From: Octopus vulgaris
Taxonomy: Eukaryota
Assembly: GCA_951406725.2 (NCBI GenBank)
Contig: OX597820.1
Coordinates: 74,710,001 to 74,774,000 of the forward strand
DNA: 64,000 bases
Direction of reading: 5' to 3'
The notes below the pieces were generated by a model that was given only the letters and a program-made list of their open reading frames with translations, had not been told where the DNA came from and ran no database searches. The translations under genes and the position numbers were made by a program. Positions 5,224 to 56,677 of this stretch are shown here, in pieces. Position 1 is the stretch's first letter, and each line of letters begins with the position of its first letter.

Positions 5224-6082
5224 GTTAAGTTAAGTTAAGTTAATTTTTTGGCTCAAAAAGCAAAAAGCAAGGCCATGTAGGGGGACATGGAGTTATGTAC
5301 AGGGTGGTGTTCATGCAAAGAGTTCAGGCCATTTGTGGTCAAGGGAGACTTCACTATCTCGTCCGGCAGCTTATTCCACAGATACGCAACTCGGACGGAG
5401 AAAGCCCCTCTCCTTCGATTGAGATGAAATCGTCGCAGATAGAGCTTTTCGGAGTGACCCCACAGCCGACGTTCTGGAGCAGTAGTGAAGAATAGCTCTT
5501 TCGAGAGGTTACACTTTCCGCTTATGATATTGTGAGCAAGAATGAGATCACCACGGCGTCGTCGTTTTTCTAAAGAATAAAGGTCGAGCGTCTTCAGCCT
5601 TTCTTCATAAGACAAATGCTTGGGACCAAGAACCATGCGGGTAGCCAGGTTCCGAACTCTTTCCAGATGATGTATGTCTTTGAGGAGATAAAGAGAAGAA
5701 ACTTGAATCCCGTACTCCAATATGGGTCTCACCAGCGTGACATAGAGCGGTAGGAATATGGTTGCTGTGAGCATTCCGAATGACCGTCGAATCAAAAACA
5801 GAACTCCGCGTGCTTTGTTGGCAGCATGGACGCACTGGGCCGAAGGCGAAAAAGAAGAAAACACCAAGATACCCAGGTCCTTTACCTGGTCGGTCCTCTC
5901 CAGCAGCAGACGACCTGGCTCGAAATCAAGTTGAGTTGCAGGAGAAGAGCCAACAGGCAGATGAAAGCACGTTCAGACACAGGTCCCATTCGTTAGACCA
6001 TCTCCAAACTTGGAGGAGGCATCGACGAAGATCCTCTATATCACCGCGAGGAGCGACCAGTTTGACATCATCGGCAAATAGA
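5224..6082 (-). mobile_element. CR1-clade LINE 3' fragment (RT C-terminus, frameshifted)
   Basis: Translations LFADDVKL, LYVTLVRPILEYG, LSYEERLKTLDLYSLEKRRRRGDLI, FSVRVAYLWNKLP are typical CR1/L2 ORF2 motifs; ends in a (TTAAC)n tail at 5224-5243. Confidence 0.92.
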
Positions 6083-16674: not shown

Positions 16675-17391
16675 ATATATACATAAATACATACATATGT
16701 ATATATATATATATGTAAACACACATATGTACACACGTATGGATATATCACTATGAATCTATATCAACATCTCGTATATATCTTTCAATGAATAAATCCA
16801 GCAAGCAATTCAATCTCTGTATATTCGCTCCTCCCCTCCCCTTTCACTCTCTCTCTCTCTCTCTCTTTCTCTCTCTGTATCTATATATTGGTATGTGTCT
16901 CATAGAATATGTTACGCACAAACATACTCGCGCGCATAGAACCATTCCAATAATTGGATGCAAGGCTTGCTGAGTAAGTTTCCGTAGAGTGCCATTCTAC
17001 TTAAATCTACATGGAAAATTTTGAGAATATCTTTGAAGTTTTGATTTGTTTATCATTAAGAGTCAAAAAATTAGTTCGCGTTCTTTCTACATACATGACT
17101 GTGTATACACAGACACACAGACACACAAGTGTATATATATGTGTGTGTGAGTGTGTGAATTCGCTAATTTTATATATATGTGATATATATATTTTCATCA
17201 ACAAACACCCGCCCATACTCACACATGCGTGGTTGTATTTTATGAGGTTTCAAATTTACAGTATGTTGACATCAAGTGAGCCGAAACCTGGCGGTCACTT
17301 TCAACGATAGAATGTCAAAACAAATATATATATATATATAGGTGTGTGTGTGTGTGTCTGTGTGTATGTATGTATATAGAAATATATATAT

Positions 17392-17927
17392 AATGATAAA
17401 TCTCAGAGCGAGTTATAAACAGTAACAGCAACACATCGTGACGTATATTTGCCATTTGAATATGGCTAAACCCTAAGGGTGGATGCTACTGTAGTTTGTA
17501 GCCCCAGGTACTATCAGTATTTGTAAAGGGAAGCCATCCTTCCCGTCTTCAACTTATGATACACACGGACTCGAGTTTCAGGGTATTGACCCGTCATCGG
17601 CGTGTGACAATCATAGTTGTCGATGAGAAGTCAGCTCCCTTCACAAATACATATACTTTTTCCAGTATCGATTGACACTGATATTGAAAAAGTGTAATGA
17701 AACAATGATAAATCTCAGAGCGAGTTATAAACAGTAGCAGCAACACATCGTGACGTATATTTGCCAATTGAATATGGCTAACCCCTAAGGGTGGATGCTA
17801 CTGTAGTTGCTACTGATAGGGCACAGAAAGTGTGTCTATAGCCAGCTGGAGGAGGTGTCCTCCTGGGGCTACAAACTACAGTAGCATCCACCCTTAGGGG
17901 TTAGCCATATTCAAATGGCAAATATAC

Positions 17928-17929
<2 letters not shown>
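17392..17929 (-). mobile_element. retrozyme-like hammerhead element R1 (partial tandem + inverted arm)
   Basis: 105-bp direct repeat at 17392/17704 (312-bp period); 68-bp inverted copy 17862-17929 of 17441-17508; internal hammerhead; flanked by (TA)n. Confidence 0.75.
17562..17606 (-). ncRNA. type I hammerhead ribozyme motif (core variant CCGAUGA)
   Basis: CACACG-CCGAUGA-C-GGGU-CAAU-ACCC-U-GAAAC-UCGA-GUC-CGUGUG: 6-bp helix I, helix II, palindromic helix III (ACUCGAGU), GUC triplet. Confidence 0.7.
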
Positions 17930-17985
<56 letters not shown>

Positions 17986-23156: not shown

Positions 23157-23556
23157 TACATTATTTACAATGGACGGATAGGTGTGTTCACCTTGTTTGT
23201 TGTTATTACAACGTTTCGGCTGATGTGTTCAGTATACTGCTCACATTCCTAAGGTATTCCTAAGGTATGTCCATGGACATATAGCGTAGTGGATAAGTGT
23301 GCGGGCTACTAACCTCCGGATCCTAAGTTTAATCCCAGGCAGGGATTGAAAAATAATATCAACAGAAATATAACATCAGCAACATACCTTAGGAAGGAGA
23401 ACAGTATACCCCATTAGTCAAATAAAGGGTTGTGTTCAAAATTCCACTAAAACACCAGATGAAGGCTGGAGAGAACCTCAGTCGAAACAATTGTGATAGC
23501 AACAAACAAGGTGAGGAGACCTATCCGTCCATTGTAAATACTTCTTCATCTCAGAA
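23157..23556 (+). mobile_element. tRNA-headed hammerhead SINE (S5), diverged copy A with inverted arm
   Basis: tRNA-like head 23275-23340; decayed HHR (CAGAUGA..GAAAC) about 23451-23495; exact inverted repeat 23162-23183 / 23519-23540. Confidence 0.75.
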
Positions 23557-27626: not shown

Positions 27627-27691
27627 TGTATGTATATATGTATATATATATGTATATGTATTATTTTAAGCAGCAGAAAATTCAACAAAAT

Positions 27692-27729
27692 CTGTTACTC
27701 TGAGTTTCTCGTTGCCGTTCATCAGACAG
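27692..27729 (-). ncRNA. minimal type I hammerhead ribozyme in PLE 3' region
   Basis: CUGU-CUGAUGA-A-CG-GCAA-CG-A-GAAAC-UCAGA-GUA-ACAG; intact core, helix I CUGU/ACAG. Confidence 0.8.
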
Positions 27730-28750
27730 TTTTTGCTAGAATGGAACTTATATATTAATTCAATCTATACTCTTACAAACGCTACACCTTTAAAAAGAAA
27801 TGGACTTATTTGATTGGCCCTTTAGAAAAAAACGGTCAATCTTCGAGCGATAAACAAAAAGGTCAAAAATATATGTATATATATATAAAAAAACTTATAA
27901 AAATTATAAAAATTATAAAATCCGAGGAAAAAACCGAGGAAAAAAACCTATTGCCGTTAATGAAGACAGTACAAATTAATGCATAGAAATTAAACCTGTT
28001 ATAAATACTGCAATACATATTTATATTAAAATCCACATATATATATCAACATACACAAAAGGATGCGCGTAAACGCCATACATACATATACATACGTATG
28101 AATATGAATCTAAATTATACACATAAAAGCATGTGTACATATATTCACGCAAACCGTCTCGCACGCAAGCTAAAATTCATCTATGTAGCAATTCTCATAT
28201 ACTGAGCAAGGAGGGGGAACGAAAGAAAGGGAAAGAGAGAAAAAGGAACGAAGGAGGGGTGGGGAAAAAACTTGTAGCGATGTTATTGGCATCTATAGAG
28301 GCCAGTATACATACACAAGTTTGAATTGATACATATACATACCGTCGTGTGTATGCGTGCTTAAGCACAAGCATACTTTCACTTACACATACACAGATAC
28401 GCATGCTTACAAATACATATGCTTTGCTATACACATACTTATATAAACATTCTAATTTTGACAACATTGCTTTTTTTTAAAAAAAACATTGCTTTTAAAA
28501 AATGGGTGCATTAATAAAAATATATACGAAAGACATATAAAATGAAATATAACATCCTATTTTGGGTCATTTATAAATAATCAAGGTAATATAAATAATC
28601 AAGGTAATCCTATGCAATACAATAACATGAAAACAAAGTTTGTAGGTTTTTCCTAATATATATGTAGAAACAATAAGACTTTGCTATAGATCCGTCGTAG
28701 CGCTCAAGAGTCAAAATCAAAATCAAAAATCAAAATACAAAATATATACT

Positions 28751-30065
28751 CTATCCATATGGTATATTTATATTCGACATTTTAAATTTAGCCGCGTGCC
28801 TACATAAGTTCATTAACTCACTTCTTTGATTCAAAGAATTATTGTCTTTGAATAAGATGTGCATTTTCTCTAATAAGCAAAGCCTGCACTTGAAATTATA
28901 TTTGTAAGCTCCATGCCTGTATGGTGCCGCCCTGTCTAGAATGCTCCATGTCACGTTGAAAGGTGGGGCTTCCTTTTCTTTTAGTTCCCAGACATATTTT
29001 GCTAGGCTGGTTTTCTTCCTATTCTCTGGGTATTTAAAAGAATTCTTATGAGAATAAAATCTTGTTTTAAATGAATTTTCTGAAGCCCCTGTGTATGTCT
29101 TGTATTCCGATGAGCCTTCCACTTGCACCTTGGCTCTATAAACTACTCCTTTCACTAGACATTTCCCTTCTAACGGACAGGAGCTTTCGTTTTGAAATTA
29201 CATTTCTTAATGGGCTCGGCACCATGTCTAATCTCAATTAGCTTCCTATTATGTCGGCTAATGTAAGAGGCGAAATTTCTGCAACAAGAATAGCTAACCT
29301 TCAGGGTTCTTCTATTAAATATTCTGTAGAATTTATGACCCTGCTTAAAATGCTTAGAGACTAATCTCAAAAATTCCTTACCTATATTAGTCTTTACGGC
29401 CAAATTGAAAGCCGGGTTGAACCACAAAACTTTCCTGGTCCTAGTTCTTCGTGCAGCATTACTATTAGCATTAAGCTGGTTGAACTGGATCTTCTCCGAG
29501 AATCCACTATTCTTTAATGCGCTATCGTAATAAGGTGCAGCATTATGGAATGCTGCCTCGTCCGAAGAAATTGAAGATATTCTTCTACCTACATTGCTGA
29601 CTAAGTTGCAAAGGATAACTGGTGGATGGTTCGAATCTTTGCTAATATACGATAGCTTTTCATTGGGCTTACGGAAAGGTTTAAATCTATCCGATCTTAC
29701 ATTAAAATTTACGTCTAAAAAATCTACACTATTCAGGTTAGTATCTATCGTAATCCGTAAGCCCATCCTTTGAAAGAAAGCTATAAGGTCCTTCCTAAGT
29801 CTATCTGATTCATGGCCGTTTAGATTATGCGTGGCTATAAGGCCGTCATCCCTATATAGACCTGCATCTATAAATGGGAATTCTATTTTTAGATTATGGA
29901 GAATAAAGGCTCCTATGAGCATACATAATTCAGCCCCGTCGTATGCCCCCATCGGTACATCGAAAAGAGAATCCTCAGTCTTCTTAATTCAGGTGGAATC
30001 CTCGAAAAACAGAAGCGATTTCCTCGCATGCATAATAATTTCAATTTCCGAGCTATCGATGTTGA

Positions 30066-39369: not shown

Positions 39370-39408
39370 ATGTCCTGAGGAAGGTTTATAAGCCCGAAAT
39401 ATAGAAAT
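39370..39408 (+). ncRNA. minimal hammerhead-like motif
   Basis: AUGUC-CUGAGGA-A-GGUUU-AU-AAGCC-C-GAAAU-AUA-GAAAU; helix I needs one substitution (GAAAU to GACAU). Confidence 0.55.
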
Positions 39409-40579: not shown

Positions 40580-40796
40580 TACAGTTCTATATTTAAGAGA
40601 TGAAGAATAATGTATATTATTTACATTTGACGGGTATTTGCCCACATCTTGTTCGTTGTTAACACAACGTTTTAGTTGATATACCCTCCAGCCTTCATGG
40701 GGTGTCTTGGAGAAATTTCGAAACTGGGCATATGGCGTAGTGGTTAAGAGCGCGAGCCACTAACACCAAGATTCCAAGTTCGATTCCAGGCAGTGA

Positions 40797-40877
<81 letters not shown>

Positions 40878-41052
40878 CAATAACAATAATAATAATTCTA
40901 ACATCAAAAAATACCTTAGAAATGAGAACCCAGGCTCGAAATTTCCCCACGACACCTGATGAAGGCTGGAGGGTGTATCAACCGAAACGTAGTGTTAACA
41001 ACAAACAAGCTGAGAACAAATATCCGTCTAATGTAAATAATGTAAATAATGT
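40580..41052 (+). mobile_element. tRNA-headed hammerhead SINE (S5), copy B with upstream inverted arm
   Basis: A box TGGCGTAGTGG 40733-40743, B box GTTCGATTCC 40778-40787, (AAT)n, HHR; 40610-40725 is the reverse complement of about 40930-41050. Confidence 0.9.
40951..40996 (+). ncRNA. minimal type I hammerhead ribozyme motif
   Basis: GACAC-CUGAUGA-A-GGCUG..CAACC-GAAAC-GUA-GUGUU. Confidence 0.75.
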
Positions 41053-45358: not shown

Positions 45359-45940
<582 letters not shown>

Positions 45941-45951
45941 AAGAAGCTCCT

Positions 45952-50530: not shown

Positions 50531-51504
50531 AAAGGCACGACTCTTCCTGCATACAATGCAGACACAGGGATCAAAACAGATGCACATTAATACAGCGTAG
50601 CACACACACACCTACACGCTCACTCACATATACTCACATACTTACACGCTCACTGACACACGCACACAAACACTGACACCCTCACTCATACACTCTCTCA
50701 CACACACCCATACAGATACACACTTACACATACCAATATCGACACACATTCACACACACGTACATATACACGCACATTATTTTTGTCTATTGTCTCCCTT
50801 AATATTCGTTCTCCCTGATAAAGAGCAAAAAAAAAAAAAAATACTTTCATTTCGACCTCACTTTCCAGTATGGCGATCTCCTAACATAACGCATCGATGC
50901 ATCATCTCTGTTTATTTTACTATTTGATTTGTTTCCGTTATTTTTTTGTTTTGGCTGTTTTCTACAATGAATGGCATTTAGTCCGTAACGTAAGATGCTT
51001 CTTTGAACGTGTTCTTCTCTTTTTCTGTTTTGCAGTCCAACGTTTGTATTTTTGCTGTTCTTTATTTTGTATTTTGAAACCTACACGAGTTTTCCCTCGC
51101 AACACTAACGCTGCTTCCAGAACTGTTCTTGAATTACAACGTGTTGGATTACATTGCATCACTTATACCTACATACATCTGTGTATGTATGCATAAACTT
51201 ATGTATGTGTACACCCTTTTACTTTTTTATAAGTTTCAGCTCGAGAGCTGTGACCATGCTGGAGCATCGCCACTTTTTTCCCTAAATATGAGCTGAATTC
51301 TAGAAGTACTGCAATATCAGGTCAGCAACACGGCAAAAGTGGAGCAAGCCCCTTAAATTTCGCCTCATTTTAAAAATCAATTTAATATCTATGGCTCAGA
51401 TCGGGACTGTATGGGATATTAAGCTGATGAGAATAAATACTAGGCTTTGGTCTTATCCAAAAGACCAAAAAGCGTATGTATGCAAACTTTACGCTTTTGT
51501 TCTT

Positions 51505-53375: not shown

Positions 53376-54340
53376 CCCATGAAATGTTCAAATACACACA
53401 CAGAGACAGACAGACACACACACACACACATACATGCACACACACCCATGCACACACACATGCACACACGTACACGCACGCACACTCACACACACACACA
53501 CATGCACAGACTGAAACATATACATACATTCTTACAAATATACAAGATATAACAAATCGGCCTCATACATCAACCCACGTATTTATTCACATAAATACAG
53601 AATTACCTCTAAATATAACACAATGCATAGATGCTTTTTTTTTAAAAGCCGTTTACACACATATATATCAACATGTGTGTTTCCATACGTTACTATTTCC
53701 AGACACGGTCTGATAGATGTGAGATTACTTACAGACAAATTATATTTACTAGAATTTCGTCGACAATAACCATAAGAAGTCACTGAACTTTCAAAGCGGA
53801 ACTTTCAGAGCAATTGTCATATTTTTCACTAATACAAACTTTGATGGATTTTATTAAATTTCAGTATTTTGTGTTGTTATTATTCTTACTAGATTTGATG
53901 TCTAAAATAAAACATATGAAGTTTTTGTCACGAAATCAATGCAACTTTTCCTCAACATGCATATTATATTTGCATTATTTTATTACTTTCATGGTTCACA
54001 TAGAGTCGTACACGTGTACATGGTGGATATTAACTCGTAGACGAGTGTGATTATCACTGACTAATTATCATATCATTGACGTTAAAGACACAACTGTCAA
54101 CAATGCCGGTGCTGAAATTTAAAATCAATAACAGCCTGCACAACAACACTAAGATTCTCACCTACTAAGCCAAGCAGCATAGAAACAAGCAAGAGCATGA
54201 TCTCCAGCTTTGCAATGAAGCGGGTTTTATAGCAGAATTACATTCTCCAAGGGAGATACTACAGTTCTATATTTGAGAGATGAGGAATTATTTACATTAT
54301 TTACATTTGACGGCTATTTGTCCTCATCTTGTTTGTTGTT

Positions 54341-54386
54341 AACACAACGTTTCGGCTGTTATACCCTCCAGACTTCATCAGGTGTC
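54341..54386 (-). ncRNA. minimal type I hammerhead ribozyme motif
   Basis: GACAC-CUGAUGA-A-GUCUG..CAGCC-GAAAC-GUU-GUGUU. Confidence 0.75.
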
Positions 54387-54467
54387 TTGGGGAAATTTTT
54401 CGAACCTTGGTTCTCACTTCTAAGGTATTTTTCGATGTTTTTGTTGTTGTTGTTTTTTGTTGTTGTC

Positions 54468-54505
<38 letters not shown>

Positions 54506-54595
54506 GATCACTGCTTGGAATCGAACTCGGAATCTTGGGGTTAATAACCTGCGCTCTTAACTCCAAGATTCCGAGTTCGATTCCAGGCAGTGACT

Positions 54596-54659
<64 letters not shown>

Positions 54660-54717
54660 CAACAACAGCATCGAAAAATATCTCAGGAATGAGAACCCAG
54701 GTTTGAAAATTCCCCAA

Positions 54718-54763
54718 GACACCTGATGAAGGCTGGTGAGTATATCAGCTGAAACGTTGTGTT
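54718..54763 (+). ncRNA. minimal type I hammerhead ribozyme motif
   Basis: GACAC-CUGAUGA-A-GGCUG-GUGAGUAUAU-CAGCU-GAAAC-GUU-GUGUU; intact core. Confidence 0.8.
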
Positions 54764-55234
54764 AAAAACAAACAAGATGAGGACAAATATCCGTCAAGTG
54801 TAAATAATGTCCAAGGTAGATGTTTAAACAAAGACTAGGGTTCTCTAACTCCAAGCTGTTGGATGGTCGTTGATTCTACAGTGTCAATCCGTCCTTTGAA
54901 AGATTTGTTTTTAATCTTGCAGAATGTCCTCATCTCGAAAAAATTGAAAAAAAGAACTACCCTCCTCAGCCAGCAGGCTTGGTATGGATGCCGGTTTAGT
55001 CGCCGATCGCCTGATTATGCGATAACTTGTACTAGGTTATAAGTTACCAGTCGCAATAAGATTGATGTTTCAGAAATATATATATGCATGCATACCTATC
55101 ACAAAGGTATGTATACATATCTTATTTCTTACTAGTTTCAGAAAGAATTTGAGGCCATGCTGGGGCACTGCTTTCAAAATGATAGATTTCATTCCTGTAC
55201 AGTATCTGGTGAAGAAGTGTTTTGGAATGAGCTA

Positions 55235-56677
55235 CTCATTTTCTGTGCATCCTGCCGCGATATGTGTTCATCTGCTCTCCTGATTAAAAATTAGTCCAGA
55301 TGTTCCTTGAAGACACCTACATTGCTAGAAATGGGAGTAAAATACTCCTGGCGCTGTAAAAAAAGAGCACAAATGTATACATATACGCTTACATGGGAAG
55401 AAACAACCCCATGACCGAATCGAGAATCTCTCAGACTAGACAGCTTATTTCGCGTATTTCTGTACACTTCATCTGTGTGAGCCTCTTCATCTGCTGGTGT
55501 CGGCTCATTCCAGTTCGGCAAAACAAAACGATAGAAAAAGAAGTTCCAATACGAACATTTCAGTGTTTGACTGTCAATCTGAGGACAGTGCAGAGGATTC
55601 GGAGAGGAACTGGATGAGTCTAATGGTGATAACGAAGATACGGCAACTTGGAAAACTTACTCTGATCGTTCTTATATGAAAACAACTCCTGAAGTTGTCC
55701 GTGACAGCCAGGCCATAATTGACAACGATTCTTCCAAGTCAATCAGGTTCACTGACAGGGACATGCGAGTGTCTGAGTTTCTTATCAGGCAAGTAGTGCA
55801 GGAAGACATTCGGTATTCCTCGTACACGATGGAAAAGGGCCAATTTTCATCCCAAGTCATAAAGGATAAGAGGAAAGAACAAACTCATGCATCCCCTCCT
55901 ACCGAACATGCTTTGGTTTTTCTCAGACCAGAAAAAATTCTGCCAGCATCAAATGGTGAACACACAGAACAGCTTGCAGTGTCCCCAAAACATGTACCGA
56001 GAGGGATAAAAATCAAACATCCAGTCAACACCATGGTGTTTGGAGTGATTACTACTGATGGCGATATTATGCCTCCATTCATCTTTCCACACGGTTTCAG
56101 ACTCAACACGGAGGCCTACATCAAGTACTTGGATGAGATAGTGCTGCTCTGGATCAAGAGGGTGGCTGCTGGAAGACTCTATGTCTGGCAACAGGACTCT
56201 GCGCCATACCACACAAGCAGGAGAACCCAGTCATGGTTGTCAGACAATTTCTGCAACCACATCACCGCTAACATCTAGCCACCTAACTCCCCAGACTGCA
56301 ACATCCTTGGTTATTATACGTAGGCGTAGTTGAATGAGAGACCAACAAAACTCCTTGTAACACCAAAGATGAACTGAAGGCAAGGATTATGGCAGCATTC
56401 ACCAACTTAAACAAGGAGATCGTCCAGAAGAGTTGCAAGCGATTCCGAAGTCGTCTGGAGGCCGTGGTTGAAACCAACGGCGATTTTGTAGAATAAATTT
56501 ACACTTTAGTATTTCAAGATATTTTTATGTAATTTTGGTAAATATATCTGTTAAAATGAGATGTCAGTGTTATTTTCACTTTTGTGAAATTTAGTTTATT
56601 CATTTATTTATTTAGTTCATATACTTAATTTAGTTTATACACTTTTACGTAATTTAGTTTATTCCCCGCACCTTGTA
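55235..56677 (+). mobile_element. DD37D (maT-type) Tc1/mariner transposon, decayed
   Basis: FFSDQK, MVFGVI, WQQDSAPYH, PPNSPDCNIL(G)YY with 37 residues from the second D to the mutated third; RSRLEAVVETNGDFVE*; 3' terminus AGTTTATTCCCCGCACCTTG-TA. 5' boundary approximate. Confidence 0.85.

Follow-up and report, generated by a model that had tools for sequence, protein, structure and literature searches.

Positions 17392 to 17929 of the window (the whole 64-kb stretch of octopus DNA analysed) hold one copy of an abundant 352-nt element that appears, by the sequence features tested, to belong to the metazoan non-LTR retrozymes. That this class is joined here to the two-site insertion footprint of a Penelope-like element (PLE), whichever template was copied, is in our judgment very likely. 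Going further, we propose an abundant, non-coding 352-nt non-LTR retrozyme that Penelope machinery pasted into (TA)n DNA with both strands primed, probably from a circular RNA template; this full reading has about as much in its favor as against it, and the circular template taken by itself is a similarly even call.

Comparison of the sequence with itself recovered a 105-nt direct repeat with three mismatches (17392-17496 and 17704-17808) at a spacing of 312, just as an earlier sequence-only reading had described, and an inverted arm (17862-17929) identical to 17441-17508 at 67 of 68 positions. The inverted match extends further, through 17820-17861 (42 nt) and 17811-17819. In the first copy, 2 nt at 17509-17510 stand for the 42-nt segment (unit positions 118-159), and the element unit thus measures 312 + 40 = 352 nt. 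These values bear out the monomer of about 350 nt that had been proposed, with about 40 nt kept in the inverted arm and missing from the first copy. The GC content of the unit is 42.4%, and no ORF was found in it, again as had been claimed: the longest Met-started frame in a translated three-unit repeat is 57 aa. There are no terminal direct repeats at the element beyond the partial tandem, and the locus holds about 1.3 units with one complete hammerhead. The parts of the insertion are as follows:

17382-17391, no strand assigned: left target flank, (AT)5, read from the sequence
17392-17703, minus strand: left arm, first unit (unit positions 1-352, with 118-159 replaced), beginning at family entry point 1
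17704-17808, minus strand: left arm, partial second unit (unit positions 1-105), head-to-tail, from repeat comparison; the junction is common in the family
17808-17815, no strand assigned: arm-to-arm joint, an 8-nt re-copy of 17796-17803, read from the sequence
17811-17929, plus strand: right arm, an inverted copy of unit positions 50-168, from alignment
17820-17861, plus strand: 42-nt family-internal segment, retained in the right arm only, from the loose ends of other copies
17930-17977, no strand assigned: right target flank, (AT)24, read from the sequence

The last 5 letters of the joint (17811-17815) double as the end of the inverted arm, forming a microhomology. The same 9-nt motif (17509-17519, 17811-17819) lies at the right border of the 42-nt loss and at the inverted-arm end; perhaps it is a pause site for the copying enzyme.

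On the minus strand, 17606-17562 carries a type I hammerhead motif with three helices, an open stem I and a GUC site, at the place where a minus-strand hammerhead had been predicted (17562-17606). The motif is the single match to our hammerhead descriptor in the 64-kb window, and none of 2,000 shuffled element sequences matched; the descriptor is strict and conservative, so that the other hammerhead-like motifs of the window were not picked up. The descriptor assigned the following parts, with position numbering (U4C, 10.1/11.1, the cut site) in what we take to be the usual convention:

17606-17601 with 17567-17562, minus strand: stem I, 6 bp
17600-17594, minus strand: core CCGAUGA, with U4C at 17599
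17593 and 17580, minus strand: C.U mismatch at the base of stem II (10.1/11.1)
17592-17589 with 17584-17581, minus strand: stem II
17579-17576, minus strand: GAAA
17576-17569, minus strand: stem III-loop, palindromic, with a 2-bp stem III
between 17568 and 17567, minus strand: predicted cut

The CCGAUGA of this copy departs from the canonical core CUGANGA...GAAA. The 8 letters of the stem III-loop form a perfect palindrome with a self-duplex energy of -10.7 kcal/mol. Folding predictions for this copy place the catalytic hammerhead fold 5.7 kcal/mol above the minimum and give stem II a pair probability of 0.09, and the U4C core is predicted to weaken cutting. Because of U4C, the C.U base, the 5.7 kcal/mol cost and the low stem II probability, circle production by this lineage is doubtful. 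U4C has been reported to lower hammerhead activity in vitro, yet the viroid that carries it remains infectious (PMC3088659). An Rfam search of the element at E<=10 returned no hammerhead match, the one match reported being to a miRNA, driven by the hairpin and scoring far under its gathering threshold; the hammerhead was likewise absent among the Rfam matches listed for the whole window (the best 150 of 232).

We observed strong folding around the motif. The minus strand of 17500-17710 folds at z = -6.4 relative to shuffles, and the stems named in the sequence-only reading, which had a hammerhead capping an extended stem with further hairpins behind it, were found. Folding defined two hairpins:

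17517-17650, minus strand: imperfect hairpin of 134 nt that extends stem I, with the hammerhead at its tip
17654-17696, minus strand: second hairpin, 8+7 bp

The 134-nt hairpin reaches -58.8 kcal/mol with 6 G-U pairs on the minus strand and -53.1 kcal/mol with 2 G-U pairs on the plus strand; the minus strand folded better than the plus strand in all three stretches tried. The monomer had been called rod-like, a description that holds for this arm (38% of the unit) but not for the predicted circle, which is branched, with 7 hairpin loops. That circle is 66% paired, with a circular z of -7.6 obtained on a 351-nt build, one base below the 352-nt unit. Both family entry points lie in loops of the predicted fold: the unpaired probability, a prediction made without a control, is 0.91 at 17704 and 0.92-0.99 at 17749-17752, and 0.06 at 17703.

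The family was traced in Logan contigs of public sequencing runs, where repeats are collapsed and depth is therefore not copy number. The element or part of it is present in 20 of 24 listed runs, from four organisms and 10 studies. Six of the 24 were analysed (X1, X2, X3, X7, X14 and X17), with X1 figures drawn from about 80% of the run. At 80% likeness we counted 6504 (X1), 5407 (X2), 3313 (X3) and 2324 (X7) family contigs, spanning four organisms. X14 and X17 are presumed RNA runs, their type being guessed, and their 115 family contigs each say nothing on expression. Copies are dispersed, as judged from thousands of contigs with many different flanks. Exact-pattern scans of metagenome, viral and prokaryote genome contigs gave 0 loci.

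Where copies end was mapped on the single-copy stretch 17511-17808, using 361 partly matched contigs in X1 and 343 in X2. Among the loose ends listed, two positions stood out. One pile-up lies before 17703/17704 (24+17 in X1, 28 in X2) and recurs in X3 (20) and X7 (12); the other lies before 17750 (24 in X1, 23 in X2). An even spread would put 1.2-2.4 loose ends at each place (P<1e-19 for both pile-ups). At both, the loose-end letters are AT-rich and agree poorly with one another (0.47-0.56). The family's two fixed ends lie 46-47 nt apart, and 49 nt apart in this copy, where the first fixed end is the start of the left arm and the right arm begins 3 nt beyond the second, the 17750 equivalent. 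The sequence-only reading had proposed a test for circularly permuted start points and had counted fixed termini against itself; fixed termini are what the family has. The inverted arm is part of a Penelope-type footprint, which that reading had not named. Contig ends at 17927 were considered as the second fixed end and rejected, as the loose letters there resemble the family's own tail.

Loose ends also traced the inside of the unit. Among those listed, the ones behind 17806 enter the 42-nt segment (52 contigs in X1, 41 in X2) and the ones before 17511 finish in it (25 in X2, 20 in X3, 21 in X7); since the loose ends of other copies at both places read into it, the segment is internal to the family. 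Depth continues through the tandem junction (bins 17691-17720: 359k/333k/281k in X1, 349k/499k/590k in X2), so that head-to-tail units of 352 nt count as a main form of the family. In X1, X2 and X3 the distance from the family letters at 17699 to a contig end is 35-40 letters, which implies contigs that bridge the junction, the longest among those listed reaching 67 and 30 letters to either side. The retrozyme-type unit proposed earlier thus stands on its length, its type I hammerhead, its lack of an ORF and a head-to-tail junction common in the family. A subfamily in which the stem I extension is flanked on either side by other sequence was seen at loose ends before 17557 (18-29 contigs per run, four runs) and behind 17613 (23-29, three runs); this may possibly be a further compensatory swap.

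The core itself varies across the family. The share of depth with CUGA at 17599 (A on the plus strand) is 27.5% in X1, 60.9% in X2, 70.2% in X3, 71.8% in X7, 57.0% in X14 and 33.7% in X17. CUGA is thus the majority in four of the six runs, and U4C is common in all six, at about 28-73% of depth. CCGAUGA is a family-wide allele, not a private decay of this copy. A check of the family for CUGAUGA, suggested by the sequence-only reading, found that core present, along with a canonical-core subfamily. The canonical-core variant pairs G with C at the base of stem II and has C at position 7 (CUGACGA); its letters 17593C, 17580G and 17596G occur on one 158-nt contig in X14 and in X17, with equal depth and matching end distances. 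In X2 the three letters nearly match in depth (76k each); the agreement is looser in X3 and X7, and in X1 they diverge. In a second paired change, on one contig each in X14 and X17, a stem II G-C becomes A-U (17592T with 17581A, together with 17599A, CUGAUGA). The phasing of these paired changes was deduced from depth and distances to contig ends, and both the variant shares and the compensatory changes were taken from the variant rows listed. Such compensatory changes in stem II argue that the hammerhead motif has been kept. An apparent enrichment of the canonical core in the presumed RNA runs (14.0% and 14.6%, vs 1.1% in X1) was rejected, as X2, X3 and X7 show 26-36% and the X1 value comes from about 80% of that run.

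In the mechanism we propose, the minus strand would be the RNA and hammerhead sense, and the hammerhead strand the template. Tandem transcripts would self-cleave, likely as dimers via the palindromic stem III, and be ligated to circles. A borrowed Penelope-like RT/GIY-YIG enzyme would then prime cDNA from both cut target strands. The left cDNA would start at unit position 1, cross the cut site and run a full turn plus 105 nt, while the right cDNA would start at unit position 50 and run 119 nt; the two cDNA 3' ends would be joined through 5 shared letters, and the 42-nt loss in the left arm would arise during or after copying. Several features of PLEs correspond to these steps. Endonuclease-positive PLEs have been described as inserting at (TA)n in partial tandem, with an inverted 5' copy and with a tail of 30-40 bp on one side only (PMC8557442). 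In vitro, the anole PLE protein acts on both DNA strands, cutting them at AT-rich sites and extending them, and two RT start sites on the RNA delimit the PLE tail (PMC11167929). Since reverse transcription by a Penelope enzyme begins at fixed positions within the RNA (PMC11167929), fixed ends are compatible with a circular template.

The two left-arm copies bear on the template as well. At 17427/17739 both have A, a minor allele with 10.8% and 8.4% of depth, and at two of the three mismatches between them (17425, 17767) one copy departs from a family majority of 77-97%; the third, 17470, is not cleanly scorable because contigs are split between copies. The shared minor allele and the departures from the family majority suggest that the copies were likely identical at insertion, as expected of copies made from one circle or from a homogeneous tandem transcript.

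The same two-site Penelope priming could have acted on the uncut head-to-tail transcript of a tandem locus, with no circle and with a hammerhead that is weak or dispensable. A dimer suffices as template for 1.3 units, and a predicted-weak core has been amplified, given the share of depth that U4C holds in six runs. Unprocessed RNA is the main substrate of the anole PLE in vitro, and its hammerhead mutants insert equally well (PMC11167929); among Xenopus retrozyme dimers, 8 of 9 were without cleavage and 1 of 9 was cleaved (bioRxiv 2026.07.22.740005). With PLE insertion unaffected by hammerhead mutants and Xenopus dimers mostly uncleaved, a circle is not needed. On the other side, U4C is active enough for viroid infectivity (PMC3088659), the paired stem II changes imply selection on the motif, and circles are the form in which animal retrozymes of this size build up (PMC7229834); the minor allele common to both copies is compatible with one circle, but also with a homogeneous array. 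We hold the uncut transcript to be a serious possibility that falls short of being probable. The viroid-like rod-shaped circle copied from random, permuted starts, which the test proposed in the sequence-only reading implied, is hardly credible: the cut site and unit junction are read through and the folding is strong (circular z = -7.6 on the 351-nt build), but two sharp end pile-ups refute permuted ends, and the fold is branched, with 7 hairpin loops.

The locus might instead be pseudo-LTR (pLTR) debris of an autonomous PLE, a 5'-truncated partial tandem with an inversion and no self-standing non-coding family behind it. Autonomous PLEs have been described with this layout and with a pLTR hammerhead (PMC8557442, PMC4209133), retrozymes are relatives of pLTRs (bioRxiv 2026.07.22.740005), and the mixed loose ends could conceal one partner contig of high depth. 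Past the tail, however, the same ORF-free 352-nt unit resumes, at a junction depth like that of its neighbours; the loose ends at position 1 are a mixture of AT-rich flanks and do not form a single sequence; and the 6-bp stem I is of the canonical type, vs the 4-5 bp helix I of the minimal pLTR hammerhead (PMC4209133). We consider this origin improbable. An autonomous partner sharing the element's tail was not found, the element having no significant match elsewhere in the 64-kb window. Duplication and inversion at the DNA level, by slippage or fold-back repair after insertion of a single unit, is largely refuted and very unlikely. Repair typically leaves such traces as the microhomology at the joint and the loss of 42 nt, and the locus is embedded in microsatellites; yet 42 nt missing from the left arm are present in the right, the tandem junction is that of the family at large, and the outer ends fall at or 3 nt from the two fixed ends.

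The rest of the window is microsatellite-rich, at 36% GC. A short interspersed repeat adjoining the element resembles what we take to be one from octopus genomes. One Penelope-like fragment was seen:

28751-29988, minus strand: frameshifted Penelope-like RT (HTH_animal-like part) with a GIY-YIG-like endonuclease fragment, from atlas matches

The atlas matches (0.94-0.96) are to clusters with HTH_animal in 61-93%, RVT_1 in 19% and GIY-YIG in 11%. The fragment lies 11 kb from the element and has no sequence in common with it. About 1 kb downstream of it, just before a (TA)n run, there is a hammerhead-like motif (about 27660-27760, minus strand). Two further open frames presumably derive from other transposons, 5253-5972 (minus strand) resembling a LINE RT tail and 55583-56278 (plus strand) a Tc1/mariner transposase fragment; both were blank in Pfam, as were all four transposon-like frames of the window, the PLE-like fragment included. 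Another dispersed repeat family, whose hammerhead-like core is minimal, occupies 40607-41050, 45384-45942, 54287-54810 and 23157-23540, with CUGAUGA cores at 40956 (plus), 45471 (minus), 54381 (minus) and 54723 (plus); its copies are 75-84% alike and occur as inverted pairs, the pair at 54287-54810 surrounding an (ATT)n/(AAT)n run. Outside this family, hammerhead-like cores that belong to other types of sequence lie at 39375 (plus) and 50217 (minus); both fail the strict descriptor. A full-length U2 snRNA-like copy at 51283-51476 (minus strand) scores 79.6 bits against a gathering score of 46 and has many broken pairs; it is probably a pseudogene.

Among known systems, metazoan non-LTR retrozymes have units of about 150-450 bp with GC below 50%, no ORF and a head-to-tail arrangement (PMC7229834), and the octopus element, at 352 nt and 42.4% GC with no ORF, falls within these values. 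It resembles axolotl Rtz_353 with HHR_Amex2 and the mussel 350-390-bp repeats in being a non-coding head-to-tail unit of about 350 nt, and resembles HHR_Amex2 in its type I hammerhead, 2-bp stem III with tetraloop and pyrimidine mismatch at the stem II base; its predicted circle, like those of metazoan retrozymes, is strongly self-paired (PMC7229834). Unlike the axolotl and mussel retrozymes, it is present here as 1.3 units with one hammerhead and U4C, and its circle is a prediction; its inverted second arm and two fixed ends have no counterpart in the available description (PMC7229834). Animal retrozymes have been argued to be non-autonomous PLE derivatives (Li, Clavereau and Pollet, bioRxiv 10.64898/2026.07.22.740005). 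The element shares with the retrozymes of that study its unit size, its lack of an ORF and PLE-like sequence in the same window; by contrast, this locus has one complete hammerhead, where Li et al. call a copy active when it has two in succession, and the octopus lies outside their sample of vertebrates, insects and one coral.

Like endonuclease-positive PLEs, the element combines a partial tandem, an inverted 5' copy, a one-sided tail and AT-rich targets (PMC8557442, PMC11167929), with the hammerhead upstream of the RT start sites (PMC11167929). Unlike PLEs, it is without an ORF, and its tail measures 46-49 nt vs 30-40 bp (PMC8557442); the RT plus GIY-YIG ORF between pLTRs that marks an autonomous PLE is absent from it. 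U4C is a core change shared with a viroid hammerhead variant and common in the octopus family, in a replicating plant pathogen RNA there and a genomic animal repeat here (PMC3088659). No paper among the matches listed describes octopus retrozymes; octopus appeared there only in PMC8557442, on Naiad elements. Retrozymes as a class, their tie to Penelope elements, the mechanism behind the tail and U4C have each been published, and the locus itself is unsurprising for that reason.

The route of animal retrozymes into DNA has so far been inferred, and this family joins the Penelope two-start footprint to a protein-free unit. It also sets strong-core and weak-core variants side by side, so that a comparison of cleavage, circles and copy number between them would test the need for the ribozyme and the circle. 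We suggest, tentatively and as something we think rather unlikely, that a retrozyme lineage spread over several related animal species after its hammerhead had weakened (U4C plus the stem II mismatch), beside a canonical-core sister. If so, the family would be a natural experiment in which cleavage and circles are dispensable for Penelope-driven spread; alternatively, slower cutting may keep circles closed long enough for copying round them.
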